In this document: piece after piece, positions 48,001 to 64,000 of the stretch | Layout of the letters: every line of letters starts with the position of its first letter | Numbering within the stretch: position 1 is the stretch's first letter | NCBI GenBank assembly: GCA_023248155.1 | Contig: JAHFFE010000004.1 | Location: 68,248 to 132,247 of the forward strand | Length of the DNA stretch: 64,000 nucleotides | Source of the DNA: Candidatus Omnitrophota bacterium | GTDB lineage: Bacteria; Omnitrophota; Gorgyraeia; 1-14-0-20-64-10 | Direction of reading: 5' to 3' | Made by a program: the position numbers and the translations under genes | The notes under the pieces: model-generated | What the model was told of the DNA's origin: nothing | Database searches by the model: none | Seen by the model: the letters and a program-made list of their open reading frames with translations, nothing else

Positions 48001-51000
48001 AACGCTCACCCGGTCGCTGGATGCAAAAAACCAAGCGATACGTTTTGCCGTCAACGCCCTGCTGAAAGGCGCGGATGGCTTAGGGACAACCACCGGCTTG
48101 CAGTTTTATGAAAACATGGAAGACCGCGGCGGCTACTATCAGGTTTACGAATTTCTCTTCACCGACCAAATGCCGCCGGCCGCGGCTATCGACGAAGTCG
48201 CAGCGGCCTATAAAAAACTGGCATTGTCCAAAGGATTGTCGTCCGCCGGTCTGGCTGGTTTCCTGAAAAACCTTACGAATGCGGGCAGTGTGCGGACGGA
48301 TAATCTGTCCGGCGGCGCGCAAAATGCGCGTCAGCAGGGCTATTCCAAGAGTTTGGCTGACAATATCGTGAACACGATTGTGTATTCAGCGGCTGTCATG
48401 GCGACCAATATTTGGGGTGGTGGGGGCCTGGGCGCCGCTTCGATGGATGGCGCGCTGATCGCGCCGGAGGGCGATCTCATCACGCCGCGTTTCGACTCCT
48501 CTGACCAGACCAACCGGGGCATCGTCAACCCAATGATCGAAGACGGTGAACACCGCTACACGCTGAAACTTCTGAAGGCCTATTCCACCAGCTTGACGGA
48601 ATTCGCCACGCAGTTTGATCCGCCGGTGGAAGCCGACGATTACCGCGCCAATCAGGAAGCCAAAGAAACGGGCCAGACCCCGGATCAGACGATTGACGAA
48701 CTCATCCGCAACGACGTCGGGCTGACGCATACGATTGAGAATTACGTAGCAACCCGCATCCAGTCCGGACAAATTGCTGCCGTCAGTGCGCGCGACTTCC
48801 TTGAAGAGTATCTTTGGGAACTTGCTCCGACGACCGGGACGCAGCCCAAGAATCTGCACGTTGGCCGCGAAAAAGCGCGCGAGATGTTCTTTGAATTGCC
48901 TGAGCTCCTGCGGAAGTTCTACAGCGAGTCGCACGGGGCCAAGGCCGACAGCGAAGCGCTCGGATATCTTGAAAGCCTGGTCAATTACCTTGTGCTGCAA
49001 AACGGAAATCCCGTGGGCAGTGACTTTAGCGGCTTGGAAATGAAAGACAAAATCAAGAAACTGGCCGAAGACCCCACGTACAGCATTGATTACGTTTACG
49101 ATTCCTGGCTCTTTAAGGCGGTTGAGAAAATCATTGCGGCGACGCTGAATTACCAAAACGAGAAACAGGAAGCCTTTAAGGATTTTTATAAGGAAGTGCT
49201 TTATACCAATCAATCGACGACCAGCCTTGGCGATGTCATGGGGCTTCTGACGCACAACATCGTCACGACCGCCGCGATTGGCGGCACGGATACCCGCGTC
49301 GATGTACGGCCGCTTTTGGATGAAGTTAAAATGGAATACCGTGCTTTTATCACGGAGCGCCAGGAAGAAGCGAAGCGCACGGCCACCGAACTTTCGCTGC
49401 AGAGCCAGCAGCGGCATGTCTCGCTGGCCGGCGGCGACCGCGGCGCGCTTGAGGGTGATCTGGATGTCCTGGCTTATGATAAACGCGAAAAAGAACTGAA
49501 AGACTTGCGCGAATTTTTGGGTTGGAAGCCGGTGGCTAGCGGCGGTTACGAATTGCCGCTTCCCACGGCCACGGCACCGGCTGACGACTGGGAAGATTAC
49601 TGGGACCGTAAAAAGTTCACGGAAGGCTGGACCGAAGCTCCCAGCGCATTTCAAGAAGCCGCTCCGGCTGGCGAACTTTACATCCTTCCCACCAAAGCCG
49701 ACAAGGCCCTGCCTGCGAGCCAATATGCCGCAGGCACGCTGGATAACTATGACTTCGGCCTTGAAAAACTTTTCCACAATACGCTTGATTCGATCCAGCT
49801 CTTGTCGGAACAGACCGTAGCCGGCCTCGAGCAGCTCAGCGCCGCCGAACCGCCCATTCCGATGAAGGACCTTGTGGGGATTGAGCCTGGCGCCGAAACG
49901 CCGCTCAATCAGCTTTTCGCCAAATACTTTACACCGGTTTGGGATAAGGGGCGTTTGGAATATAGCGGCAATATGACAGGCGATATGACGATCCGGCTTT
50001 CCAACATGGACAGCCTGACTAAAGACGTCCTGGCCTACGCCGAAAAAATCCTTAAAGACCCGAAGTCGGCGATTAACGATCTCGATTCTGGCCTGCTGGA
50101 TTTTGAAGACATCTTTTCAAAATTGCGCGAGTTGGATAACTCCCTGGCCCTTTTCCACGAAACCGAGTTCAAACGTGTCTATGACAATAGCGTGCTGGTC
50201 TCAAGCGCCAACCCATTCGATCCGGCAGGCCTTGGCGATATCTATGATTTTGCCCATGCGCGCACCGTGCCCGTGGCGCAGGTCGATCATATGCTTGATT
50301 TTGTCAGTCAGCAGATGAACCGCTATTTGGATGTGACGCGCGTCTTTTTGGCCGGTTATAACCAGCTGCGTCAGTCATTTGGCCTGAACCAGGCTGCGGA
50401 AGAGCTGCGCTTTGATCTTGAGACCATGGATCTTGACAAAGGTTTGGACGAAATCCGCAAAGTGGATCCGGGCCGCGCACGCGCGATTGAACAGTTGCGC
50501 AAAACGGCGGTGGAAATGCTCAGTTCCAATCAAGTTGTGTCCAAAGCCATGGCTTACGCCTCCGCCGCGCGGCATGTGATGCTGTCGGCGATGGCGCGCA
50601 ATGATTTTTACAAACTGGCAAAAGAAAAAGACCAGAAGCTCTCCGACCTGGACCCGGCCAGCTATATTACGCGCGATGCCCAGGGAAATCCGGTGTTAGG
50701 GACGCCGCCTTCAGGGCCTGTCTTTCTGCGGCCGGAGTTGAAATTCGATGAAGACGGCGAATACATCCGCGATTTCAAGGAATTTATCCGCACGGAAGTG
50801 GCGCCGCTTGAGGCGGTGGTCAAACAGCATGTCGTGGAAGAAGCCGCGGCAGGCACGCCCACAAATAACGCGGCGGCAGATACCCGGCTTGGTGATGTTA
50901 CCAGCGACTATGCGCAAAAGGCCATTCTGACGAATGTGACTGAATCCAAAAACGTTTTCGAGGAATACGAACACAAGATTTATCTCGAGACCTATGCCAC

Positions 51001-54000
51001 CAAGATCGGCACCGGCGGCATGCTGCTGGCGGATAAATTCACTGAATTGGAGCAAAAAGCCGCGGAATGGCTGAATGCGGCGGCCATGTTGCGCGCCGAG
51101 GAAGGCGCGGCCGGCGAAGAGCGATTCCAACAGGCCGTACGTGCCATTCATGATTACAAGAATGCTTACCGCGATTATCTGGTGCGTTTCCTGCGCGGCG
51201 ATACGTCAGAAATCTGGGGCAGTCCGTTTGCTCTGCCCTCGGGCGAGCCGGTCGAGATCCTTCAGCAAGGCAATTTCGGCATCCTGCACAATTTGAGCAT
51301 GTACTTATCGAAGGACAAGATCTATCAAATTGCCGTCAGCCCGGCTAAAAAGGATGCGAATGGCTATTTGTATTATCTCAAAAAAGATCCCATCACCGGA
51401 TTGGATTTACCCGATGTGATGACCACAACGACGAACAACCGTCAATACGTCCTTGATACAACCGTGCTGGCGTTAACGGATGATCCGGCGACGCTGGGGT
51501 GGGATGAGACGCGCGGCTTTGGCGTCAAGGATGATAAGTTCTTGCCCTTTACCAAAGAACAAATACTCAAGGGCGATGAGTCCGAGATGGTGATCGGCGA
51601 AGAAATGCGCCGCATGATGCAGGAGTATGACAAATGGTTTGACGAGGCCGTCGACGCCTACCGCGGCAGCATGTCGTATTACGAACTTAGTGTGGCGGAT
51701 TTATCCGGCACTGTCACGGCGACGCCGGGTCTTGATCCTTCGGTCATTGCCATGCAAAACACGTTTAGCGATATCCTCAAAATGCATCTTGGAACGAACC
51801 CGCCGACGGCGACATTTGCAGGTATCACGTCGATCAAAAAGGAGTTTAACGACATCCATGATGAAGCGTGGGGTGTTTACGAGCAATTCCTTTTCGGCAG
51901 CGCGGCTGAAACCGACGGAGACGGCGCTCTGGAAAAATACAGAACTGAAGTGCAGGACGTGTATGAGGCCGTCAAGGGGCTGGATAAGAAAATTTCAAGT
52001 ATCCGCCAGCTTGCCAAGGCTGAACCGGTGGCGCGCGAACTGGGCCGCAATATTTTTGAAACAGCCTTCAGTGTGATTCAGGATTTGGCTTCTGAAATGC
52101 AGCGTGAGATTTATAACTACAACCGTTCGGCGATTCTCAAGATTGGCGCGCAAGATAGCTTGAATGAGTTTTACGTTAAAAAAGTTCGCGCCATGACCGG
52201 CATGCTCAACCAACTCACTAATAATCAGTTTTCAAAATACTTTGGCCTGCCCCGGGATTGGAATAAGGCCATTTATGGCGGCTATTTTGGCCACGACTTT
52301 TTAGGGGCCCGGGATAACTGGCTGCGGGATGTGTTTGCCGTGCCGCTAGGGATTACGTACACAGGCACCCAGGCCGATCAGGACGAAATTTTTACCGAAA
52401 TCGGCATGCTTGTGCTTGATTCGCTGACCAATCATGTCTTTGAGCAGGGGACGACCGAGCAGGAAATGACGCTCTTTGCCATGATGTCGTCGGTTTTTGG
52501 CGAAAGCATGGGGCCGATCAAATATTTTGATACGGAACTCGAGTTTGACAAGAAGATGAATTATCTGCGCCAGGGCGGCGACCCGGCGTCCGGTAAGCGC
52601 CTGACACCGCTGGAAGTTTTAAGTGAATGGTTTGAAGAAGGCTTCCTGACCGACTCTGAGTTTCTGCAGTTTACGGATGCGAAGTCAGCTTCCAAGACCC
52701 AGCCCCTGGAAAAAATCATCGCCACGCTCAAAAGCCAGACCGTTTTCGGTGAACCGCGTTTCAATCATGTGATTGCGCCCAACGGTGCTGTGACGCCTGT
52801 CAATGGAACCTATGCGAAAAAGATGGAAGAAATCCGGCGCAAATATATTCTCGCCGGAAAAGTCCCGGCTAATGCGTGGCGTAACGCCGTGATGGGCGAT
52901 CTGCATTATGCGCTCGGGACGCCTTCGGCGCCGGCGCCCACGGAAATCCGCAAAGACGGTACGCTGATCAATAAATACCATTACACGGGTTTTAGCAGCG
53001 GAGAATATGGTTTGCTGGCCCTGGGCAGCCAGCTTTGTGAAGACGCTGTGAATCTGGCTTGCAACGATTCAGCTCCGATTACCGGAGATTTAAACAATAT
53101 ATTCCAGGGGTTGGGACTTATTTTTAGCACGTTTGATGAGGCGTCGGGAAAATGGAATGCGCCCGCTTTCTTTGCGATGAATGCGAATACCGATTTTCTA
53201 GACTTAGTCGGGGGTTCAACGGGACTCTCGAATGGGGTCAAACATGGTTTGTTCGATATTAACCATGCTCTTATGGATGGCGATTATCAATATTCTGCGA
53301 CCGCCGATGTATCGGACAATAAAGTTCTCTCAAAGTTCCTCTATGGCGGTGGCGGCGGAGGCCTTGCAAAAACCAATAACGCGAAAGAAGACGCCCTGGC
53401 ACAATTAATCACGAAAGCCCGCGCCAACATTCTGACGGATTACACGGCCGGCGGCGGCAATGTCGATCTTTTGCGCGAAGACGCGACGCACATTTCCAAC
53501 ACGATCCACGATCTCTATGAAAAAACGCTCAACCGCATTCAAGACTTCTACGACTATGGCCCTACACCGGGCCAGCCGGGTGCCGGCAAACTGCTCGACG
53601 AGTTCTACCTGAGCGGCCGCCAGAACTTCGCCGACTTCTCTTACAACATGATTCTGCACTTCAGCGATTTTGATCCGGCCAAATTCACGACCTCGAATTA
53701 CGACTACCTGGCCGTGGAAGCTGACCATGCCCTGGCGGAAACCGGCCTGCTCTCCAAAAACAAAGACGGCGGCGCGGCCTCCAACGCCCTCGCCTATGCC
53801 AGCCGCGCGCATTTTGAAGAAACCCTGCTTTCCGAGATTAACGCGCTCGATGAGCGGATCAGGGAATTCCTGGTCATTGGCCAGGATAGTTCGATTATCA
53901 AGGGTGGCCTGCACTCCTTTGAAGTCGCGGCCGGCATCAACGAAGCGCGCAAAGCCCGCCTGCGCGAACTCGAACGCCAAGGCATTATCAACCGCGGCGA

Positions 54001-57000
54001 AATTGCAACGGTCCAGGGTCTTACGGCTCTCACCGATCAGGAAGCCGAATTGCGCAGTTTGCTCTACAACGCGCATGTGGCCATTGAAGTCACCGATGCC
54101 AGCGGCAAATTGCATTACAAAGAATATGACAACGGGCTGAATACGCTGGAGCAGATTTATACGGATAACGACAAGAAAAAACTTGAGAAAGAAACGATTC
54201 GTACTTTGCGGGAAAACGGTATGGTTGCTGAGGCCACTCGCAACTTTATCCGCGAAAAACAGCGCAATCTCAAAGGTGAATACGTGGATACCGAAACCAT
54301 CGAAACCACGCTCACCGACATCAACACGATCGGCGAGGCCGTCAACGTTGAGCGTATCGTGACTGTGATTAAAGACGTGGGCGGGAGTCTCTTGGCCCGG
54401 ACCAATGAAGCCGTTTTGGTCAAAATGAAGGCTCGGGGCGCCGTCAAGACGGTGTCCAAGACCGGCAGTAAAATCAAAACAACGCTCAAAATTGATGGTG
54501 TCAAAACGACACTAGGATTCATCTATGATGAAGTCACGGAGACATACACGGATCTGGAGGGTAAGCCGCTCACCGGCAAGGGCCTCGGTGACAAATGGTT
54601 AATTGATGGGCTCCTGGACGGCACCCTCAGCATAACCATCCTCGACGAGGCGGATGGTTTGGAAGGTGAAATTTCCGGTCCCTTGACAAAATCGGTGCTT
54701 GTGGCGGCTAGAGACCAGGGCCTCGAAATCAGCCGGGACATCATTGAGCCGACGCTGTATGACCGCCTCCAGCATCCCGGCATGTCCGATCGAGACCTCA
54801 TAGCCATCCTGAACCCGATACCCGAGAATTTAGAGGTGGTCATGCAGAATGGCCATGTTGTCGACGCGAGTTATGACACCACCGTAGACAAATATGGCTG
54901 GAACCTCGGCAGTATTTTCCGGGGTGTCGTTGACTTTATTGTGGACAACCACGGAACCCGGACGGAGAAGTTAAAAGTTCACTTGGATTTTGCCGCGTTG
55001 GATAAGGCCCAATACGAAAAGAGAGAGCCCAGCATGATTCGCGACCTGCTCGGCGACGATCTCGGCACTGTCCTCTGGAATTCCATCGGCGGCCGGCAGT
55101 TTGTCGCGGCGTTCAGCGATATCAAGACGGCTTTGGTCAATATGGCCACCTCCATTGTCTACGAAACAAGTCAAGTCGGCCAGTGGTTCAGCAGTACGAT
55201 GGGAACGGCGGGCACGATCCTGGCCTGGACGCTTGGACTTGGGCTTCTTGCGCTGGCGGCTTTTTTCCTTGTGCCTCTAGCCGGAGCCTTTATCGCAGCC
55301 GGCGGCATTCTCTGGGGTATTTTCGCGGCGGGTGCAGTGCTCTTTGCCGGAACGGCGTTCGTTGCCGCCGTGGCGGGTTTATGGATGGGCGCCAGTCTAG
55401 GCGAAAGCAATTGGCGCAGCGTCGAAGAATACCGCAGTCACCTGCGCCAGAATGAAAAGAGTCAGTACCTCATCAATTTCGCCATGACGCTGATGCTCTC
55501 AGCAGGTATCGGCAGCAGTTCCTTTGCTGTTGATTTGTGGACAGGCGCGAAATTCTGGGCTCTTTCAGAATTTGGCAAAGCGTTTCTCATTGAGGCGGCC
55601 ATATCCGTGTTTGCCGGAGCAGCCGCGCAGCTCTTTTTCTTCATGTGGAATACGCCGGCCGCTCAGCGAACTTTGGGTGATCTGTTGTGGGAAGCGGCCA
55701 AGGGCGGCATGAATGGCTTCCTTTTCTTCATTGTGATGAGTGCCCTCTTTGGCCCCACCGCCATAACGCCCTGGCAAAACCTTCAGCAAATGGGTGAGCG
55801 TGTGACCTGGACGATTGTGAAGGCTGCCTGGAGTAAGGCGGAAGGTAATCTATTTGCCAGAACACTCGATTTCCTCATTATCCAGGGGGGTGCCGGACTG
55901 CTTATCCGTTTTGCCGCGCAATGGATTCCTTCTGCTCTTGGTGGCTGGGCATTTCGCGGGGTATTCAAAGTGGCCCAGTCGCAACTGTCGCGGGCGGCTG
56001 GAGCTTTTATTCTAAAGGCAGCTTCCATTGCCTTCATACGCTTGCCCACGATCCTGGTCAATTATCTGATTTCAGCGGTTGGTCAAGGCATCGGTTGGGC
56101 TGCGTTTGGCGTGGTTTTGACGGCGATCGGAGACGCCTGGAAAGCTGGCAGTGTCTGGACATTTTTTACATCACTCGGATCGGGTTTTCTCGCCGTCGGA
56201 TCGGCGCTTTATCAATTCCTGGGGACGCTGTTGTGGTCTCCGTTCGCATTATTTGAGGGCGGCTTCAGTGGCTTGGGAGCTCTCTTTCAGGGTTTCGTGG
56301 ATGCGCATGGCGCTATTGGGCAATCCATGCTGAATGGCTTTCTAATCGGCAATTTGTTCACTATTTTTGGGCCGTCGGTGACCGGCGGATTCGGTCGGTT
56401 TCTGGCGGGTCTGCATAACCCGTTCCAGGGCCTTGCGCGTTTAGGCGGCCAGCGCGTGGAAGCCTGGTTCATGGCGCTTATCTCAAAGATCGGACTGGGC
56501 GGATTGATGCGGCTTGGAACCGCCTTTGGGAAGTCTGCGGTCGGGAAATTGCTGTCGAACGCGGTTAGTAAAACGATTGGGAAAATTATTCCTGATGCTG
56601 TGAAGTCGGCAGCCAAACGGGTTGGTGAAATTTTAGGCAAACTGTTCTCAACTCAGGGTGTTTTCGGGCTCCTTCAACTCCCGTTCATTTCGCACTTCAG
56701 CGGGCTTTTGCTGAATCCGATCACCTTTTTGGGCAGTGCATTTTTTGTCGAGCATATTGTACCGTTTCTCGGCCAAACCATTGGGGAGCCGCTTGTACTG
56801 CAAGTGGCTTTACTTTTTGGTGTAACGGGCCTGCTGCAACGAGACGCGAAGGGCAATATTCTTCCGCAACTGAATGCCTTTGCCAAAGAACACGTGACGC
56901 AAAATCTATTCTTCTTCCTCCTGCCGCGCGATGTGCATGGCCGCGAAGCTTTCCAGAAACGCGCCCGTCTGGACTACCTGCATCAGCATGGCTCCTTGCC

Positions 57001-60000
57001 CAAGGGCAAGATCACTCAGAATAGGGCAATCGGACTAGCGCTGCGCGAGGGTAAAAACCCCGCTGAGTACTGGGCTGAAGTCAAGGGCCGCAATGCCGCC
57101 GAAGTGCTCATCGAAAGTTTCGTCCAAACGCAGATCTCCAGCGGCAACTACAATAAGTTCGAAGCGTTGACGTCGATAGCCGATCCCGGGACCTCCGAGT
57201 GGGATGTACTCATGGCCCTGGAGAAATTTAGCTTTTCGGATAATTTAGACTTTTATACTAAAAGTGAAGGCGCCGTCACTGTCGATGCTCGCACGGCCGC
57301 CCGCATTCATCTTGCAGCGAAGGTTGGAGGAAACTCTGAAAAATTTGCCGCTGCCATGACGGAGAGAATTCAAGCCGAAAATGAAGCTAAGAATCTTTAC
57401 GCGAGTGGCCGCCTGCCCGTATTGAGAGAAAAAGTAGCGGATAGGGACAGAACGATGAGTGTCAAATCCGCTGATCTTGTGGCGCGTGATTTTGGCGCGG
57501 ATTTTTTTGCGGTGGAACGGACCGACACTCTCAAATCCGGCTGGGTTTCTGGGCTCAAACCTGAAGCCATCAAAGAAGGGGCGAAATTTGAGGACATCTT
57601 CCAGGAGGGAGTAAGAGGCACAGCGCTTGAAGGCTCTAGGGTCAGAGTTTCCGATTGGAAAACGATTTCAGAGACAAAAGCGACCGATGCGATGGCCGCG
57701 GTCAACAAAGCTCTGGACGGTAAGTTTGAGGCTGAAGCGACTGAGTTTATTTTGGCGGTGTTCCAGAGTCATCTTAATTCGTCGATGGCGGCCGGGTTTA
57801 AGGCGGAACTTGCGAAGTATGGCGATAACGATGCTGCCCATGATGCAGTCTATAAACAGCTGGATGCTGATTTTGCCAAAAATAAAGCCAATGTCCGGGC
57901 GCGAGAAATGGTACTTCATGCTGAAAATGTTGCGGCAGAGCGCTACCAAAAATATCTGGATACGCTCGATTCCGCTGCCCGCAAAGCCGAATTGATAAAA
58001 ATCCCCGAGGAAGTCGATGCGGCAGGCGACACACCGGCCGGGATCGCCCAGCGGGCCCGCTGGCTTGTGGGAAGCCGCGAGCTCACCAAAATAAGTGCGC
58101 ATGAAGCCGCGGAGGCCGTAAAAGCCGCCTATGAAAAGGCCACTCCCTTCGAGACGATTGTGGGCGATAAGTTTGAAAATACTCGCGAGGTGTCACATCA
58201 GACCGAGAGTACGCTCAAAGTCAAAACGCTGCCCAAAGAACTGACGGAAAACTCAGCGGGTCACATCGCGGATGCTTTCAAGAATAATCCAGGGGTGCGC
58301 GAAGTAATCCTTGTAACCTTCAGCGAAACCAAACCCAGCAAAATGCTGCCTAAAAATGCTACCGCCGTTCAACATACCCAGCATGCAAAATATGTTGAGA
58401 AAATTGCGATTGTTGCGCTCAAGGATTCCATGCGCCCGGGTGGCACCAAATTCTCCAAAACGGAAGCTCTGGCACTTGAGAAGTTATTGAACTCAGGCTG
58501 CGGAAGCAGCTGTGCTCAAAGGGGTGCGTTCGGCAAAGATCTAAAGAAAGCTTTAACCGAAGCCGGTTTTATTCTGGGTAAGGCCTTGGCTGCGGACAAT
58601 CATAACCTGCTTAGGATCGGCGGCATGGTCGTTCTGCCGGATGACTTGAACGACCTGGATGCGCTTTCAGGCCGGCTGATCGCCGAGGCGCGGAATGACT
58701 TTTCCACGTTCGGAACCGGTGTTCGCGGTATGGAAACCCTGCGCACGGCGGTCAGAGTCTACGACTCGCTTGCGCCGACGGGCCAAAGTAACAGGGCAAA
58801 AGTTTTCTCATTTGCGCAAGCCTACTACCGCGCGGGCGCTCTCTCGGCCGGCACTGAGCAAAATAAACAGCGGCGAACGGCCCTAGACGCTCTGACAAAG
58901 CTTCTGGTGAATGTCCAGGAAAGCAAAGGCAGGACGGTCTCGGCGGCTGAGGCTAGGTCACTGCGTGTCGATGCCTTGGTGATCTTAAGAGCATTTTCCG
59001 GCGAGACGCGTGCGGCGCAGCGCTTAGCGCTTCAAGAGATCGGTGCCTTGGGCAAGGACGGTCTGGTCAAGGGCGGTAATATTTTTAATTGGGCGGAGAG
59101 TAAGATTTCTGAAGCGGATTTTAATAAATTGAGTACAGGTGCAAAAGCGAAGGCGATCGCGGACGGCAAAGTACAGCTCCAGAAAAAAACGGGAATCCAA
59201 TTTGAAAGCTTGACCAGTCTGATCAAAAGCGAATCCGGGGTCCTTCAGCTCGGAACTGCCGGCGGTAAAACCAGCGTGCTGACACCCGGTCTTACCAAGA
59301 TTATGAATCGCCTTGGCGTGCACACCGTCCAGTTTTTCCCCTCCGAGTTCCTTAAGCAGGCCGGTTTTGCGGCTGCCAGCTCGCAAGCGAGCAATACGAA
59401 AAAAATTGATCTGTTGGAGGGCGACATTTCACGATTAAACGGGCGGCTTACTAAAACAGAAGGGGCCGCGCGTCTCAAGCTCCAGGGGGAAATCGAAAAT
59501 CTGGAAGGTCTCAAGTCACTGCTGGAAGCAGGGATGAGTATTGTGGTTTTTGACTCGAAGAAATTTTATAAAGCGGGCGAAACGGCCTATCGGGAGCAAG
59601 TGCTCAAAGCGGATGTTTTGGTCGCTGATTTCAATGATACGAAAAGCGGTCTGTTGGAAGTCCGGTCGACCCGCGATTCGGCGCGCATGAACAACGTCGA
59701 AGCCGTCGGCCGTTATGATGCCGGCTTGCGGCTGCAAGATCGCATTGCGCGTTCGCAGCTTTTAATCGACGAAGTTGACCAATTGGTGGACGTTCCCTCA
59801 ACAACAACGGCGGCCTTTGGCGTTGAAGGCGGCGTGACCAAACGGGCGATTGACGTCGACAAAACCAGCGTGCGTGACGTAGACACGGTCGTCAAGGTCT
59901 TGGTCGACAAAGGCTATGCCAAATTTGAAAATAATAAACTCAAACTGACTAAGACGGGTGAGAGTAGTATTTTTGGAGCAGACGGCCGGGATATTAACGG

Positions 60001-63000
60001 CATTAATTTCAAAACGACCGCTGTGGATGATGTTTTGGGAACACTGGGCTTTGAGAGAAGTTCGAATCGCGGCCAGCAGTTTGCGAAAACGCTGGAAGGC
60101 GTTGCGCAAGGTTTGAAATTTAGCGCGCGTCAGGTGGCCTTCGGTCAAAAAGGTACAAATAAGTTTCATCCGGTCGCTGAAAACGGTGAAACCTCGGTCG
60201 ATCAGGTTTTTGCGGGCGCGCGCCGCGCTGCGGCTTACGATATCGTGGGCCGTTTGCGTGAGGGCATCAGCCATGACGGCATAGGCTCAGCCGTCTACCG
60301 CAATGTCGGCGATGTCGCGAAACTGGTGAATCTGCGCGAGAGTAAAGTTGAAGTCCAGGAAAGCGCGGTCACCGTCAGTGTGGCGGATGCTTTCCGCGAA
60401 CTGCGCAAGCTTGCCGGCGGCAATCTGATGATCCGCGGCTTTTCGGGCAATGCCACGGTGGCGCGCGAGCGTTTGGCACTGAATCTTGGGGTTGATTTTA
60501 TCGGCAAATTCGATGGGATTGAGAATGGCCGGTTCTATACGCTCAAGCAAACGCCGGGTCAAACCGGCTTCCGGCTGCGCAGCAACGCGTTAAACCATAA
60601 TTTCCATGGGACGATTGATGGCGCGCTGAACCGGATTACAGCGACCACCATCAGCCGGAATAAAAATATTTTGATTCAGGATATCACCGGCGAGGGCTAT
60701 AACGCGGTTTGGGATGCAACCGCCCGCAGATTGAGTGATCTGGGCCGCACGGCGACCGATAAAACGCTGTTTGTCGTCATGCTGCCGGAAAAAGGAAGCG
60801 TGGCCGTATTTACCGACTTTGCTGCGTTTAAAGCCAAGGATTTCAGCAAGTCCACGGAAGTGAAGTCAGTCAAGAATAAAATAACCGGCGAGCTTGATCT
60901 TGTAGTGGACATTAAGGGCCAGGAAATACAGTTCAATCGATTGCTGGGCGGCTATGAGGCCGGCAAAGGCCCTTTAGAAGCGCTAGGCTTTGACCGTGTG
61001 GTTGAGATTCAGAGCATGCCCGCGACGCGCGGTACCGACCAGCGCTTTGACGTGCAGAATTCAGCCGGCAAGTGGCAAGCCAATGTCCACCGCATCTTAC
61101 TGGTGGATCGCAATACGACTTTTGACTCGCTTGAGCAGGCCTTGGGCCGTGACCGCGGGTTAGGCAATTTGACGCTCGACCGCGCGACGCTCTCAGACAC
61201 GATTTCCGTGATTGATGCCAACCCCAATGCGCTGCGGGCCGAGTTCAGCAAACTGGGCGGGGGCGACAACGTCATCGGCTTGGTACGGTTCACCCATGAA
61301 ACGCTGCGCGCAAATATCCGCGAAGGCATTCTTAGCGATGGCTTGACCGCCTTGCGCGATGCACCCGGCCGTTTGTTGGGTGAAATTGAGACGGCGTTGA
61401 ATCAAACCTCCCAGGGCGGCGGCTTGGGCGGTGTAAAGGGCGCGGCGAAGGGCGATGTGACGGCGGCTCTGGCCTCTTTTGCGGCTTTGCGGAAGCAGGT
61501 GGAGGCAAAAGGCGATGACCTTACGACAGCCTTCAAGGGGACAGTCAAATCGGACCTAAAGTTCAACGACACCGCCAAGCAGTTTCACCAGTTGACGGTG
61601 GATCTGCTGCGTGGGACGGGAGATTTTAAGGGCACGGGGGTCGACTTGATCAAGGCCCTGGAAAATGCGGGCGCTAAAGAGCTGGCCGGCCGGTTGACGC
61701 GCGATGTTTTGAATGTGGACGCTAAATCGCTTGAGCTTAAGTTTGACGAGGTGACGGGCGCGGTCGAAGGGGCCGGACGCGGCGCCCGTTTCCTGGCCGA
61801 TGCCGATGTGTTTACGGTACGCGATACGGTTCAGGCCTTCCGTAATTCTCTGCATGATCTTTCCACGCGTCAAATTGAAGTCGGCGATAACGTTAAAGGC
61901 CGCACGACGGCTGAAACTTCGGGATTTAAAAGCGCGCGCGATCTTTTGCCGGATTTCACTTCGGCCAATCGCGCGGTGACTGCGGCGGTGCGTGTCGAAG
62001 TGAAGGCAACCGAAGGGTTGGCCCGCACCGAGGTAGGCAAAAAGTTGATTGATGCCTCCAGCGCCAAATATAGCGAGGCTTACCAAAAGACCATTGTAAC
62101 GGAGGTCACGGCAGCCCAAAAAGCGCCGGGCGCTACCGCCGCCACGATTGCTGCAGCCCGTCAAGCGGCCGAGACCAAAGCGGATGAGGCGGGGCGCGCC
62201 GCGTCAGCCACGCGGTTTTATGTGCCGAATGCCCATGAAATTCATGTGGAGGTGGGCGGCCAGGTGCTCGTGTTTAATGTGGCTGATCCTGGTGCCGTTG
62301 CCGCTGCCAATCAACTCGATTATGAAACCGCCGCCATGATTCGCAATGCCGTGCCGGCGGGTTCGGTGAATGGATTTGTAAGCGCGCAGTTTGATGTGGC
62401 GGCTAACCAGTTTGTCTTTTCGGCGGATATTTTGACGGATTTTCAATTTCAGCGTTCCGGCACAAAACTGCCGGCGGCAGATTTCTTCCGCCAGATCGTG
62501 ACCCCGCAGACCCAGCCGGGGACCAGCGGCTTCGCGAACTTTAATCGCGTTGATTTTGGCGCGACTGCGGATACTCGCAGGACCAGCCTGGAGAAGCATT
62601 TGGCGGCTCTAGCGGCTGGGAAAATCCCGTCGGCTCCCGGCATCGATGGGACAACTTTGCCTCACCAAACGCTGGTCTTGCCCGATACGGACACCGTGAT
62701 TGACGTGCCGAATGTGGGCGCTATTGCGATTAAGGGCGGGACTAAGATTTTTGTTCATGCGGATGGCACGGTGAGCATTCCGGCCGGCGCATTTGCCGAC
62801 GATGATTTTAGAATCCCGGGATTCAAGTTAATTCCGACGGCGGATGCGGCGATTGTGGTGCGCGCAACCGGGGCAACGGTTCTACGGTTAGGGCCTGGAA
62901 CGCAGTCGTCTTTTGATTTTGGCGGGGTTGCCATTCCGAATCTGCCGGAGGGGACTGAAATTGAATTTATTAAAAATACCGTGAGTGCCATTAATTTACC

Positions 63001-64000
63001 CGCGGAATCTTCTGTCTCGATCACAGTGGCGGGTACAAGATTCACATTGCCTCCCAATACCCGGATTATCCCAAGCGACATTCCACAACAAACCCAGTTT
63101 GAGCTTCCGGACGGCCGGGTTATGGTGGTTAAAATTGATGCGGTGACTAAAAAACCCGTGCCCGTATTGGCCAGCGTCAATCTGCCGGACTTTGCAACCG
63201 TCGATACGGTCTGGGTGACGGATGCCGGCGCCATTAAAACATTCCGCAAAGTGGAAACGCCCGTCAATATTGACATTGGAACCCGCAAAGTGATTCTGCC
63301 GGCGGGCGTTTTTGTAGAAACCGATCTCGCCGGAAAAATTCTCCGGATCGCGATACCTGAAAATGTAACTTTAACTACTGCCCAGCTGCCGGCCCTGACC
63401 ATTCTTCAGAAGCAAGGCGTGAAGGTTGTTTCTGTCCACGGCGTCGATGACAAAATAGGAACTGTGACTGCGATTCGAGTGAACGCCTCAAGCTTGGACC
63501 TGGATGATTTGAATGTCATCCAAAGCCTGCAAGCCACAGGAGTGAACGTGTCTTTAGTCCGTCTGCCCGCAGACACGCGTCTGGATATTAACATTCCGCC
63601 AAGCCTGGCGGGTCTCAACGACGCGCATCTGGCTGCGCTGGAAACGCTTCAGGGGCTTGGAGTGCCATATCAACTCAGCGGTGCTTCGGGCAGTGTGCAT
63701 TTGACGCTGACGACTATTCCACCCGGGTTAAACCTTGTCGAACTGTCTGAGGCCGGCTTGGATGTCCGCGTCAACCTGACAAAAATTCCTGACAAAAGCC
63801 AATGGAGTGATCAGACAGCGAAGGCGTTTAAAGCGGCCGGTGGAAAACTGATTGTGAATCTCGGCTCTTTGAATGGTGTGTCGCTTGCTGATTTGCGTGA
63901 CTTTGCCGCTCGTGATGCCGGAACAATCAATTTGAATCTGATTCAGATTGACGCAAGCTCTTTTGTTGCGCTGGCAGATCTTTCGGGAACAAAAAATATT
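2..64000 (+). CDS. Internal fragment of a single giant ORF (21,333 in-window codons; 5' and 3' ends outside window) encoding a multidomain, probably cell-surface/membrane-associated giant protein
   Basis: I translated frame +2 across the whole window (2-10,150; 10,150-35,700; 35,700-48,000; 48,000-64,000) and met no stop codon. No + ORF in the supplied track has start mod 3 = 2, so frame 2 has no stop; otherwise an ATG(50)-to-stop ORF would be listed. Coding-like codon usage with GC-rich third positions (ctg, gcc, ggc, ccg) throughout. Recognisable protein motifs run collinearly along the frame. First in-frame Met is at nt 50, but there is no upstream stop, so it is not a start. Confidence 0.9.
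212..2760 (+). repeat. Three tandem ~400-aa globular modules sharing a conserved core [YW]-x-[LV]-x-V-x-VDG...(V/I)P...AGAHTI-x-[LF]
   Basis: FRYAVVVDGVQRG...LNAGAHHIDIVEMNFYDY at about nt 212-360. YEWQLAVAVDGDDRG...MANGAHTISLRWLNPRPG at about nt 1418-1580. DWQIEVDVYVDDEIY...LTAGAHTIHFYVRDLYG at about nt 2596-2760. Spacing is about 1,200 nt (400 aa). Beta-rich composition, possibly carbohydrate-binding-like. Confidence 0.5.
2950..8290 (+). repeat. Array of about 35 degenerate ~30-36-aa beta-hairpin modules with consensus [VIL]-x-[VIL]-x-G-x-x-[YF]-x-[VIL]-x(4-6)-G-x-[VIL]-x-[VIL]; predicted beta-solenoid or beaded beta-sandwich stalk
   Basis: Examples read in frame: LRLAGKFYRVEISGTAVTLV; VVLDGVLYTIRMDTADSISLL; ITVKDRLYDLVRTEAGALVLV; LFFDGKIYTLAMQANQFVLSDG; IRISGKIYRLALAADGDWVLS; IEIAGTVYQVQRTSGRLEF; FYINGTIYEVQYDETAGSFEV; VELKGQIYWLTRLEAGRYEV; VLAGGKEYTIGQDSVDQRFYL. 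Confidence 0.6.
8310..9265 (+). repeat. Dockerin type-I-like / EF-hand-like Ca-binding repeat array 1 (about 9 copies of D-[VIL]-[ND]-x-[DN]-G-x-[VI]-[DN]-x-x-D with following helix)
   Basis: ADLDQNGEFNAEDARIL; DINGDGLVDQQDIDALNKII; LDVNHDRKIDYRDANAL; FDINRDGLTSS; LDVNNDGLVTHEDVTALGKVI; FDINGDGKLDDLANRKD; ADVNRNGKVDDKDRSDLSESI; ADINNDGRVDDRDWRTLEQGL; DVNEDGRIDSKDSEVLERYL. Confidence 0.7.
9300..10860 (+). repeat. Second block of the G-x-x-Y beta-hairpin modules (about 13 copies)
   Basis: IVEIGEHIYDIYEDPDGKIRLV; VIRLGEREYDAYFKDYGRFEF; VIELEGKRYEVVNHFDGSYTF; VKLDGIYYDIHEDPLTGHVQL; VTIRGRVYDVIENSYSGSITL; VIELNGKNYFVRENTQDGITEF. Confidence 0.55.
10880..11450 (+). other. Concanavalin-A-like / LamG jelly-roll domain (DUF1080-like, 3-keto-disaccharide-hydrolase-type lectin fold)
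   Basis: WQDASIDFTKDKMPQGWAPETGSWRIMAGRAESLVQ...TDFTLSVDLSFEI...WEGSVLFNV...YAARLFERGG...YRMQIRVESGKITLAMNDQPLLEAQDHYFTGGAVALAGKGRDVQFDNIVLH. The start (W..G.W....G.L), middle and C-terminal GG-x-[IV]-[AG]-L...-x-V-x-F-[RD]-N-I motif are laid out as in DUF1080/LamG domains. Confidence 0.5.
11641..11780 (+). other. Gly-rich flexible acidic linker
   Basis: AQGGTAGLGASGGEGEGSFAGGESAGGGAGMPAGGETGAGSGTSYQVSEDEG. Confidence 0.7.
11850..13830 (+). repeat. Dockerin/EF-hand-like Ca-binding repeat array 2 (about 18 copies, ~22-37 aa period)
   Basis: VDITGDGRGDIADIKRIQ; ADVTGDGKVTDADWKAIE; SDVTQDGVTDYRDVEAI; ADLNHNGALDAADVAQL; LDLDFDGKIVLADELAAF; ADIDQDGLITPADLRIYEKL; FDLTNDGVVDGSDEQRMVDLL; GDINRDGITDSRDLDLYTLI; ADVNGDGLIDEKDLARAREV; FDLNQDGKVDDSDLAALMTAI; HDVNADGAVNQTDVDLFDRMI; ADIDHSGAFDAGDVTNF; RDVTGDKRLDSADLLAV; ADLTRDNVIDSADSAFLAQAI; ADIDQDNLIGARDYAGLL; ADVTGDGKVDANDLKDLRRLV; ADVTRDRKVDVADVTKVIESV; FDITGDRMVNALDEQALFF. 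Confidence 0.7.
14282..14323 (+). repeat. In-frame palindromic element copy 1: CAGGGACAGGTCC-16 nt-GGACCTGTCCCTG (perfect 13-bp inverted repeat), encoding QGQVQPGTQPDLSL
   Basis: Read directly from nt 14282-14294 and 14311-14323; the arms are exact reverse complements. Total length 42 nt, a multiple of 3, starting on a codon boundary. Confidence 0.8.
16280..16360 (+). repeat. In-frame palindromic element copy 2: CAGGGACAAGTCC-55 nt loop-GGACCTGTCCCTG (12/13 complementary); loop contains a 21-nt imperfect direct repeat GGTCCAGTTAGC[CG]GCTCA
   Basis: nt 16280-16292 and 16348-16360, encoding QGQVQLAAQVPGTQGEVQLAAQMDLSL. 81 nt, a multiple of 3, on a codon boundary. Confidence 0.75.
16766..16803 (+). 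repeat. In-frame palindromic element copy 3: CAGGGACAGGTCC-13 nt-GGACCTGTCCCT (12-13 bp stem)
   Basis: nt 16766-16778 and 16792-16803, encoding QGQVQTTQQDLSL. 39 nt, a multiple of 3, on a codon boundary. Confidence 0.75.
24146..24580 (+). other. C39-like (bacteriocin-processing peptidase / papain-fold) domain, probably a non-catalytic 'C39-like domain' variant
   Basis: About 145 aa: KYLSEQSLHFGISAFTALSFML...(about 70 aa)...LPAIIHLDGDHFAVLEKADAENVTVREYTGDSFALSVAEFVKHWDGFVMS. The C-terminal block matches the C39 signature G-x-HF(V/A)VL...DP/E...(F/L)...W-x-G-x-(V/L). The N-terminal Q-x(5)-[DC]G motif is present, but the position of the catalytic Cys (DCGxAAL) is occupied by HFGISAF, so there is no Cys. 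Confidence 0.5.
25444..25770 (+). repeat. Dockerin/EF-hand-like Ca-binding repeat cluster 3 (4 copies) plus an isolated copy at about 27,250-27,300 (LDTDGDVDYDDLNVLKT)
   Basis: ADVNRDGSVTAADVTALNLAM; DDINLDGVVDLLDKAIWQQLL; GDVDADSQLDSDDVSLFRSYL; VNVDQDPAGLVDSSDVLAVSNYV. Confidence 0.6.
27560..28050 (+). other. Small beta-rich globular domain inserted in the helical region
   Basis: RISGELDRAAAPGTYNQVAVSFAAPMPEFRVGTTTFKFPFHLRIGNEIFGMRAGDHTVTPEIMNQAFTFYKLYDVVDVTLPDGSIIGYNQPVTTLAAMNPFVSYYDIPTGEHRVNVGPITYRLDEGLTGLWLRLE. The composition changes abruptly to aromatic- and Pro/Gly-containing beta-type sequence. Confidence 0.4.
32100..35700 (+). other. About 1,200-aa Pro/Thr/Asn/Gly-rich beta-type globular region (several domains), with a Cys-bracketed loop (LCQGPTVPPVCQ, nt 34351-34395)
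   Basis: VIPAGFPIQNNTVYEWFPAPATPPAVTPKWYDLQAGSINFSAPASNFVPGQAYVIMRYVKHP; KLYLYLPVHVGEIFADVNGDGYLGLETDPELMVWQDGQLVDIKARD; TFEGDTVNYNVLKHVEVTYELENGETFTSRGETTGFVSD. Confidence 0.4.
35700..43550 (+). other. Mixed region: predominantly charged alpha-helical/coiled-coil segments with small interspersed globular inserts. Includes an E/R/K-rich single-alpha-helix-like stretch at nt 41341-41470
   Basis: For example LEEEAAIRDAEIAGNLAKVQALLAAYNTANANSDLSQADKDRAYQLWKSAREQLNELYIQRFG; FQALEEEKQRRRLEKEAEVRLRNQLKDLAKKPAEIKFQMEKF; DLAALRSQMSETDSQISGINLKISELEETYKRIGG. Small beta/Cys-containing insert at 38,700-38,930 (LCPAGSTDDEIDIDCVRRDSKGKIMTDIHGNVMYIPFEKNAVGYVEG). Confidence 0.4.
45098..45960 (+). repeat. 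Tandem duplication of a ~145-aa module: FTWGQDF-x-F...FKCHIN-x-AGGCDV-[ST]-D followed by thrombospondin-type-3-like acidic Ca-binding loops (D/N-x-D/N-G-N-x-x-LD-P-x-ED)
   Basis: Copy 1, nt about 45098-45530: NFTWGQDFVFTVRG...FKCHINAAGGCDVSDP...TEDRDGDGLLDGSEDANGNNVLDPGEDTLPFNGVLDPSEDTNGNAALDQ...HGTLVLEGDEV. Copy 2, nt about 45533-45960: FYFTWGQDFEFSYLW...FKCHINVAGGCDVTDL...DEDRPALLFPNGNDLLDPSEDINNNGILDLGEDIFAPIGVLNLAEDINQNGRIDV...RGTLILRRNEIV. Period 436 nt. Nucleotide identity is visibly partial, e.g. tttaaatgccatatcaa[tc]g[ct]ggc[tc]ggcggctg[tc]ga[ct]gt. Confidence 0.7.
46019..46232 (+). repeat. YD/RHS-like repeats (2-3 copies)
   Basis: TSYTDSEGRRLKAVDAFGNVTRYFYRRDPLSGAVLTDVRTGQPLETYVLDANNNITILGAEGERLAFIDF. 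This follows the YD-repeat pattern G-x-x-[TS]-x-Y-x-[YT]-D-x-x-G-R-L-x-x-V-x-D-x-x-G-N-x-T-x-Y-x-Y. Confidence 0.45.
48000..55190 (+). other. About 2,400-aa mixed alpha/beta globular region of unknown function (several domains). Includes a hydrophobic/Gly stretch (nt 48361-48466) and a Gly6 hinge (nt 53344-53364)
   Basis: For example NIVNTIVYSAAVMATNIWGGGGLGAASMDGALIAP; KFLYGGGGGGLAKTNN; HALMDGDYQYSATADVSDNKVLS; KIKTTLKIDGVKTTLGFIYDEVTETYTDLEGKPLTGKGLGDKWLIDGLLDGTLSITILDEADGLEGEISGPL. Confidence 0.3.
55195..56930 (+). other. Polytopic membrane segment: about 10-14 predicted transmembrane helices, Gly/Ala/Phe/Leu-rich with many small-xxx-small motifs
   Basis: Hydrophobic runs of 18-25 aa separated by short polar loops: TAGTILAWTLGLGLLALAAFFLVPLAGAFIAAGGILWGIFAAGAVLFAGTAFVAAVAGLWMGASLG; YLINFAMTLMLSAGIGSSSFAV; AFLIEAAISVFAGAAAQLFFFMW; GMNGFLFFIVMSALFGPTAI; LDFLIIQGGAGLLIRFAAQWIP; AGAFILKAASIAFIRLPTILVNYLISAVGQGIGWAAFGVVLTAIG; VWTFFTSLGSGFLAVGSALYQFLGTLLWSPFALF; LNGFLIGNLFTIFGPSVTGGFGRFLAGL; VEAWFMALISKIGLGGLMRLG; GVFGLLQLPFISHFSGLLLNPITFLGSAFFVEHIVPFLG; LVLQVALLFGVTGLL; NLFFFLLP. 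Confidence 0.65.
59200..61200 (+). other. SecA-like / SF2 DEAD-type ATPase motor domain (two RecA-like lobes) embedded in the giant protein
   Basis: Collinear motifs in frame 2. Motif I (Walker A) LQLGTAGGKTSVLT at nt 59252-59275 (SecA: EMKTGEGKTLVAT), followed by GVHTV (SecA: GVHVV). Motif II LLIDEVDQLVD, with DEVD at nt 59768-59779 (SecA: VDEVDSILIDEA). Motif III IRGFSGNATVARE at nt 60437-60457 (SecA: LAGMTGTADTE). Motif V QSMPATRGTDQ at nt 61016-61042 (SecA: TNMAGRGTDI). Motif VI SLEQALGRDRGLGN at nt 61130-61168 (SecA: NQLRGRSGRQG). The DEVD and RGTD variants are characteristic of SecA rather than generic DEAD-box helicases. Confidence 0.6.
62700..64000 (+). other. Beta-type tandem modules followed by a Leu-rich-repeat-like segment; continues beyond window
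   Basis: IKGGTKIFVHADGTVSIPAGAFADDDFRIPGFKLIPTADAAIVVRATGATVLRLGPGTQSSFDFGGVAIPNLPEGTEIEFI... then LDLDDLNVIQSLQATGVNVSLVRLPADTRLDINIPPSLAGLNDAHLAALETLQGLGV...LNLVELSEAGLDVRVNLTKIP...LIVNLGSLNGVSLADLRDFAARDAGTINLNLIQIDASSFVALADLSG, which has LxxLxLxxN periodicity. Confidence 0.35.

Follow-up and report, generated by a model that had tools for sequence, protein, structure and literature searches.

We know of no established account of the export and anchoring of bacterial proteins that run to tens of thousands of residues, and the question is raised directly by a locus of Candidatus Omnitrophota bacterium (assembly GCA_023248155.1, contig JAHFFE010000004.1, positions 68,248 to 132,247 of the forward strand). 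In this stretch of 64,000 nucleotides (nt), hereafter the window, frame 2 of the + strand runs from nt 2 to nt 64000 without a stop, giving 21,333 codons that exit the window at both ends, and the other five frames hold 263-1141 stops each across the 64 kb. Because frame 2 is open over the whole window, a group of SecA-like ATPase motifs found toward its downstream end lies inside the giant gene. Does the giant protein carry a SecA-type motor of its own, and could such a motor serve in export? Judging from sequence, amino acids (aa) ~19,650-20,450 probably form a genuine, highly divergent SecA-type superfamily 2 (SF2) ATPase module. An earlier sequence-only reading of the window had proposed such a motor about 19,700 residues into the protein; the position agrees, but the figure is a lower bound only, because the N terminus lies outside the window.

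Motif order and conservation of the candidate module

The motifs named in the sequence-only reading were all found at their quoted places, in order and in one open frame, and the spacings between them agreed with those given there (169 aa from motif I to II, 223 aa from II to III, and 196 aa from III to V), with a further 37 aa from V to VI. Likeness to SecA was scored with position-specific scoring matrices (PSSMs) for eight conserved SecA blocks, built from SecA-family sequences only (17 diverse SecA, SecA2, and SecA-like sequences, from a plasmid collection plus E. coli) and scanned over all 21,333 aa. The features of the module are listed below, where P0001 is a remote homolog described later in this section.

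59240..61170 (aa ~19747-20390), + strand: putative SecA-like SF2 ATPase module, motifs I to VI; best ordered chain of SecA blocks in the open reading frame (ORF).
59252-59275 (aa 19751-19758), + strand: motif I (Walker A), GTAGGKTS, with Lys 19756 and Thr 19757; SecA PSSM rank 1-2 of 21,323.
59315-59329 (aa 19772-19776), + strand: motif Ia-like GVHTV (GVHVV in SecA); regular expression expected 0.055 times per protein.
59759-59791 (aa 19920-19930), + strand: motif II (Walker B), LLIDEVDQLVD, of the SecA-type DEVD form, with the acidic pair Asp 19923 and Glu 19924; SecA PSSM rank 1 of 21,316.
59792..60205, + strand: insertion of ~140 aa separating motif II from the return segment, where SecA carries its preprotein-binding domain (PPXD), as given by the spacing of motifs II and III.
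60215..60268, + strand: GARRAAAYDIVGRLREGI, which may correspond to the PPXD return stem of SecA (GRRWSDGLHQAVEAKEGV); conservation peak of 0.73 with P0001.
60341..60418, + strand: SKVEVQESAVTVSVADAFRELRKLAG, counterpart of the SecA-specific block before motif III (pre-III), ..ITFQNYFRLYEKLAG; SecA PSSM rank 1 of 21,318.
60437-60457 (aa 20146-20152), + strand: motif III, GFSGNAT (GMTGTA in SecA); SecA PSSM rank 11-13.
61016-61042 (aa 20339-20347), + strand: motif V, MPATRGTDQ (MAGRGTDI in SecA), with Arg 20343; SecA PSSM rank 2 of 21,320.
61136-61165 (aa 20379-20388), + strand: motif VI, QALGRDRGLG (QLRGRSGRQG in SecA), with Arg 20383 and Arg 20385.
61166..62461 (to aa ~20820), + strand: C-terminal extension, conserved with P0001 by BLASTP alignment.

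At the expected sites, and in the expected order, the SecA PSSMs placed motif I second, motif II first, the pre-III block (ITFQNYFRxYxKLAG) first, motif III eleventh, motif V second, and motif VI third among ~21,300 positions, the rank of motif VI being 3 with a 25-aa block and 34 with a 15-aa block. Two further blocks matched weakly, namely motif Ia taken as 14 aa (rank 350, z = 2.3) and the PPXD return stem GARRAAAYDIVGRLREGI (rank 409, z = 2.2). The ordered chain of blocks scored -77, the best of any 750-aa segment in the protein (others: mean -167, sd 12, maximum -132; z ~7), with z = 6.4 against shuffles of the region. Because the curated blocks had been picked with knowledge of the motifs in the window, the scan was repeated with blocks taken automatically as the ten most conserved ungapped 12-mers. 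The same segment was again the best (-106.5 compared to a maximum of -118.7 elsewhere; z = 4.4), with motifs I and V at rank 1 and motif II at rank 3.

An alternative hypothesis denies any ATPase domain and attributes the joint occurrence of the motifs to chance in a very long Ala/Gly-rich protein. A protein of 21,333+ aa does yield isolated look-alikes: LEADTGKTKAL (nt ~16622-16654, aa 5541-5551) is the top SecA PSSM match for motif I, and VTGAVEGAGRGARF (nt ~61751-61792, aa 20584-20597), ~200 aa past motif VI, is the top match for motif V. Both stand without companion motifs and are probably chance matches, and the lack of any significant hidden Markov model (HMM) match to the module is what such an origin would also produce. 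Co-occurrence in order is another matter. Of six strict patterns written from E. coli SecA, five were each found once in the 21,333 aa (DE[VA]D twice), where a shuffled protein is expected to hold 0.02-0.09 of each; for the complete chain in order, the expectation calculated analytically is ~1e-18. A sub-chain of motifs I, II, and V appeared in 0 of 2000 shuffled proteins, though the real sequence also fails it, as its motif I misses G.GKT. A single segment was the best ordered chain in both block designs, and conservation with an independent homolog peaks at these very blocks. A chance origin is thereby effectively refuted.

That homolog, P0001, was the only relative returned when 1.84 billion representatives were scanned in full with HMMER (E = 2.5e-33, ~30% identity). 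It is a singleton, a 1,039-aa protein-level assembly fragment from a soil metagenome (run SRR3989338). Against a background of 25%, the five highest 15-aa peaks of conservation between the two proteins fall on the pre-III block (0.87), motif V (0.80), motif VI (0.73), the GARRAxAY stem (0.73), and motif II (0.67). P0001 has DEVDQL, TRGTDQR, and QALGRDRGL in unchanged form, and motif III agrees in five of the six residues of GFSGxA. The sequence-only reading had staked its proposal on the motif residues being conserved among homologs, and for motifs II, III, V, and VI this was borne out, with conservation maxima at these motifs. As judged from this pair of sequences, the four motifs are shown to be under purifying selection.

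Further relatives were sought by several routes. A homolog search of protein collections with the ATPase region returned none, the same search with P0001 as query returned only P0001 itself, and no contig encoding P0001 is on record. A pattern-based search for related loci in genomes yielded 194 stretches, 0 of them confirmed. When genomes and metagenomes were scanned with a degenerate DNA pattern for P[AT]TRGTDQR, 44 and 3 matches appeared, respectively, all chance by tblastn, and tblastn of the ATPase region against plasmids gave no match.

Probable SecA kinship, the helicase alternative, and divergence

Like canonical SecA (E. coli b0098, 901 aa), the module has motifs of the same order and flavor, with SecA-type forms kept at motif I (GxGKT-like), Ia (GVHxV), II (DEVD), pre-III (FRxxxKLAG), III (GxxGxA), V (RGTD), and VI (QxxGRxxG). 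As in SecA, motifs II and III stand far apart, with a large insertion where SecA has its PPXD, the distance of 223 aa falling within the SecA range (160-278 aa in 15 SecA-type sequences); the distance from motif V to VI (37 aa) likewise falls within that of SecA (33-90 aa). The differences are as marked as the likenesses. Compared with canonical SecA, the module holds extra insertions of ~65 aa (between motifs I and II) and ~75 aa (between motifs III and V) and shows no significant full-length similarity, and the helical scaffold, two-helix finger, wing, and C-terminal zinc tail of SecA were not detected in it. Where SecA has its scaffold, ~430 aa past motif VI are instead conserved with P0001. 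Finally, SecA is a soluble peripheral subunit, whereas the module is covalently part of a protein of >21,000 aa, behind that protein's own transmembrane (TM) segments.

Could the module instead be a generic SF2 helicase or translocase NTPase without specific kinship to SecA, acting on nucleic acid or as a switch, its SecA likeness being a matter of convergence or over-reading? DEAD-box helicases carry the family motifs PTRELA, DEAD, SAT, and HRIGRTGR, with ~30 aa between motifs II and III. Control PSSMs were built from five of them in E. coli (RhlE, DeaD, RhlB, SrmB, and DbpA). The core motifs common to SF2 scored moderately well at the module (rank 11 for motif I, 3 for II, and 20 for V), and when the SecA set was cut to five sequences as well, the SecA and DEAD-box chains gave similar values (z = 2.9 and 2.5, respectively). 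A generic SF2 enzyme would also account for the absence of a SecA HMM match at any threshold and of a scaffold or wing. However, the DEAD-box PSSMs were weak at motif Ia (rank 559) and misfitted motifs III (rank 934) and VI (rank 702), both of which suit SecA (ranks 11-34), and the module was not the best segment for the DEAD-box chain. The pre-III block that ranked first of 21,318 is specific to SecA, and the 223 aa between motifs II and III are typical of SecA and compare with 31-33 aa in the DEAD-box set. Nor is there a match to a Pfam helicase family (PF00270 or PF00271), and the membrane-anchored setting agrees with published SecA-related domains of this protein class. Because the five-sequence SecA chain reached a z of only 2.9, the preference for SecA over a generic SF2 enzyme rests mainly on the pre-III block, motifs III and VI, and the II-to-III spacing. 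On this evidence we consider a generic SF2 origin unlikely.

A number of results nevertheless weigh against the assignment to SecA. Pfam profiles for SecA_DEAD (PF07517), SecA_PP_bind (PF01043), SecA_SW (PF07516), DEAD, and Helicase_C gave no match at E<=1 on 1,500 aa, and no SecA, DEAD, or helicase match was obtained at E<=10 on three sub-pieces of 267-334 aa or on P0001. NCBIfam (including its SecA models) and PHROGs gave no match; a sequence search of the PDB, with the single sequence and with a two-sequence profile, returned only chance matches; and BLASTP against E. coli SecA yielded colinear fragments that all fell short of significance. Our own 17-sequence SecA model, run in hmmsearch --max with filters off, scored -1.7 bits. 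Alignment of the two-sequence profile with hhalign reached E = 0.17 against E. coli SecA and E = 0.13 against the 17-sequence alignment, along a path that runs through motifs II, III, and V. AlphaFold2 models from the two-sequence alignment were too poor to use, with a predicted local distance difference test (pLDDT) score of 34.8 (884 aa) and 37.9 (371 aa), and a Foldseek search with the 371-aa model returned noise (best E = 0.28). Thus, neither the match to SecA_DEAD, SecA_PP_bind, Helicase_C, or DEAD nor, with these unusable models, the structural similarity that the sequence-only reading had looked to for confirmation appeared. The insert at the PPXD position gave no PF01043 match. After motif VI, no PF07516 match to the SecA scaffold and wing was found, and the linker and scaffold block PSSMs ranked only 18-233 within 200 aa; with neither a scaffold nor a two-helix finger in evidence, we do not assume that the module works by the push mechanism of canonical SecA on SecY. 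At the level of single motifs, motif I reads TAGGKT and not the TGxGKT of SecA and SF2 enzymes, so that the pattern G.GKT fails although the Lys and Thr are retained, and motif VI reads GRDRG and not GRxGR (R-x-R instead of R-x-x-R). P0001 begins after motif I, so its comparison with the module starts downstream of Walker A. The curated blocks were chosen with the motifs known, and the automatic version of the chain is weaker; the reduced five-sequence chain, as noted, comes near that of the DEAD-box helicases.

Two apparent likenesses were dropped. The segment after motif VI looked by eye like the start of a SecA linker and scaffold and was given up on the PSSM ranks of 18-233. RDVDTVVK had been considered as a PPXD match to SecA RDVDYIVK; it is not kept in P0001, and its distance from the return segment is ~100 aa too great. 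A homolog search with E. coli SecA itself returned only SecAs at least 90% identical to it, too close to serve in a profile. The proposal of a SecA-like motor therefore stands in part: the SecA-only matrices, the conservation in P0001, and the insertion between motifs II and III support it, but a significant HMM, structural, or full-length match does not accompany them.

Divergence of this order raises the possibility that the module is a degenerate, catalytically dead SecA-like relic, kept as a structural or binding module. The replacement of a P-loop Gly by Ala, the rearranged motif VI (GRDRG), the insertions of ~65 and ~75 aa, the loss of the scaffold, and a divergence so extreme that HMMER is blind to it would all be expected of such a relic. 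Yet the full set of motifs for ATP binding and hydrolysis is present, motif III included, with the catalytic positions retained in Walker A (Lys/Thr), Walker B (Asp-Glu), motif V (Arg), and motif VI (one Arg), and the motif blocks are the most conserved parts of an alignment with a ~30% identical homolog (0.67-0.87 compared to 25%), as expected under selection for catalysis. A dead relic is therefore improbable. The more probable reading, a divergent SecA-type ATPase, offers concrete targets for mutagenesis in its fixed residues (the Walker B DEVD, the pre-III block, and motifs III, V, and VI).

The giant protein and its published relatives

The reading frame of the giant protein and the features upstream of the module are as follows.

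2..64000, + strand: giant-protein reading frame, no stop in frame 2.
1799-2038: ILEI (Pfam), N-terminal third.
8384-8572 (best of 5 stretches): Dockerin_1 (Pfam), N-terminal third.
12821-12988: EF-hand pair (Pfam), N-terminal third.
24323-24571 (aa ~8108-8190): Peptidase_C39 (Pfam, E = 9e-10), in the middle of the giant ORF.
55244..56836 (aa 18415-18945), + strand: ~5 hydrophobic TM-like segments by Kyte-Doolittle hydropathy, a putative membrane anchor.

The Pfam matches are strong for Dockerin_1 (E = 2e-53 over five stretches) and ILEI (E = 2e-7), and EF-hand_7 was also matched. As C39 domains usually serve ABC exporters by cutting double-glycine leaders on the cytoplasmic face, the giant protein might itself be cleaved into several parts. 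On either side of the C39 domain lies an isolated hydrophobic segment, one at aa 7248-7266 (peak at nt 21743) and the other at aa 8242-8260 (peak at nt 24725). The ~9,300 consecutive residues encoded by nt 29996-58000 gave no Pfam match at E<=0.01, and within nt 50000-58000 nothing appeared at E<=1 except one weak match to Vps54_N (E = 0.19). The hydrophobic cluster toward the end of this region was drawn from Kyte-Doolittle hydropathy alone (19-aa window, peaks 1.65-2.46). The polytopic membrane domain that the sequence-only reading placed just upstream of the motor is thus supported by ~5 hydropathy peaks at aa 18415-18945, but it lies 800-1,330 aa upstream of motif I, and the call is one of simple hydropathy.

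This layout has a published precedent. West-Roberts et al. 2023 (bioRxiv 10.1101/2023.11.21.568195) described divergent SecA DEAD and preprotein-binding domains in giant proteins of predatory Omnitrophota; these SecA-related domains lack a scaffold or wing, are placed after C-terminal TM anchors, and occur in proteins of the Archaeovorin and Dockerin types. The Dockerin type, with three published proteins, combines dockerin, EF-hand, ILEI, and C39 domains and is taken to require an Omnitrophota genome and an overall length of no fewer than 30,000 aa. For long Omnitrophota proteins, a 2026 preprint (10.64898/2026.06.07.730766) further lists an architecture cluster of 20 proteins with PF07517. 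The ORF in the window matches the Dockerin-type architecture feature by feature: it is very long and membrane-anchored, and it has the same dockerin, EF-hand, ILEI, and C39 domains and the same order of a TM-like cluster (aa 18415-18945) followed by a SecA-like module (aa 19747-20390) without scaffold or wing. Because the window fits this description, the statement in the sequence-only reading that no described giant adhesin has such a feature was mistaken; West-Roberts et al. 2023 report it, including in the Dockerin type.

The SecA-like ATPase near the end of the giant protein is therefore a very divergent case of the arrangement described in 2023. The published giants have Pfam-type SecA matches, whereas the module in the window falls below detection by Pfam SecA_DEAD and SecA_PP_bind at E<=10, and it has one homolog in the protein collections searched. 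What sets it apart is this degree of divergence, the principle itself being already published. A SecA-type motor built in behind a membrane anchor is the main published clue to the export of giant proteins (West-Roberts et al. 2023), and the present case suggests that motors of this sort can diverge past every standard domain search. Because they evade such searches, their frequency in giant proteins is probably underestimated.

Three observations concern the giant gene as a whole. Its minus strand holds many long antisense ORFs (up to 645 aa among those listed, with 699 codons open in one frame), which are most likely shadow ORFs of a giant gene of 56% GC and not genes. Cumulative GC skew climbs almost monotonically over the whole gene, from 0.07 to 1.37. 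GC content is ~0.58-0.62 in the first 30 kb and ~0.52-0.56 in the second half.

A candidate role at the membrane

If the module is an active ATPase, a first nucleotide-binding domain would be formed by Walker A (K19756, T19757) and the DEVD Walker B (D19923, E19924), split by the ~140-aa insertion at the position of the SecA preprotein-binding domain. A second RecA-like domain would follow, with motif V (R20343) and motif VI (R20383, R20385), giving the two-domain fold of SF2 enzymes. As the module lies C-terminal to ~5 hydrophobic helices, we infer that it is cytoplasmic, the anchor of the giant protein itself holding it at the membrane in place of a SecA scaffold and wing. ATP would be bound and hydrolyzed at the interface of the two domains, and the resulting domain motion could grip or move polypeptide at the membrane. 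We speculate that this motion might aid the export or insertion of the dockerin-bearing N-terminal part, of other copies of the protein, or of partner proteins, by way of SecYEG or the protein's own TM bundle.

Such a role in export is a tentative suggestion, possible but more doubtful than the ATPase assignment itself. Self-export, which the sequence-only reading had raised, is not a new idea; it was already put forward in 2023, when the SecA-related domains of giant proteins were suggested to export the giant protein itself or accessory proteins (10.1101/2023.11.21.568195). In the present case, the module could not export its own N terminus cotranslationally, because the motor is translated last, after >19,700 upstream codons. 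The modes that would remain are posttranslational action in cis, action in trans on other copies or partners, or service as a membrane-tethered regulator. A bolder hypothesis is that the module and P0001 represent a separate, ultra-divergent SecA-like lineage that escapes Pfam and HMMER, has lost the scaffold and two-helix finger, and is fused behind its own TM bundle; module and bundle together would form a self-contained, SecYEG-independent "auto-translocon" exporting or anchoring a passenger of >18,000 aa, with the ~430-aa extension replacing the scaffold. We regard this as quite improbable.

The recruitment of SecA-type motors to dedicated substrates is also seen in SecA2 and accessory SecA proteins and in orphan SecA-like proteins of plasmids, which in this respect resemble the module. 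The closest parallel in layout is a hypothetical protein of Legionella geestiana (WP_135842960.1; 2,947 aa; plasmid NZ_CP041715.1, 453-9296), in which, as in the window, a divergent SecA-like core sits inside a large protein by hydrophobic segments. Its core carries AEVKTGEGKT, FFDEVDSL, GLTGTL, ARGID, and QIFGRTARKG and is 25% identical to E. coli SecA, and its hydrophobic segments come after the core. With E. coli SecA as query, tblastn picks up these plasmid SecA-like domains (E = 8e-28 or better), whereas it misses the module in the window, and no direct similarity links the plasmid SecA-like proteins to the window region, by tblastn or by a SecA model that includes the Legionella protein. 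Stand-alone SecA-like genes in unusual neighborhoods were also observed on plasmids of Pontibrevibacter (NZ_CP049813.1) and Ca. Chlorohelix (NZ_CP128402.1). In these two plasmids, one such gene, annotated as a "DEAD/DEAH box helicase," is flanked by genes for a PqqD-family peptide chaperone and for an RND adaptor, and the other adjoins an A24 prepilin peptidase, which suggests that they are dedicated SecA paralogs for special substrates.

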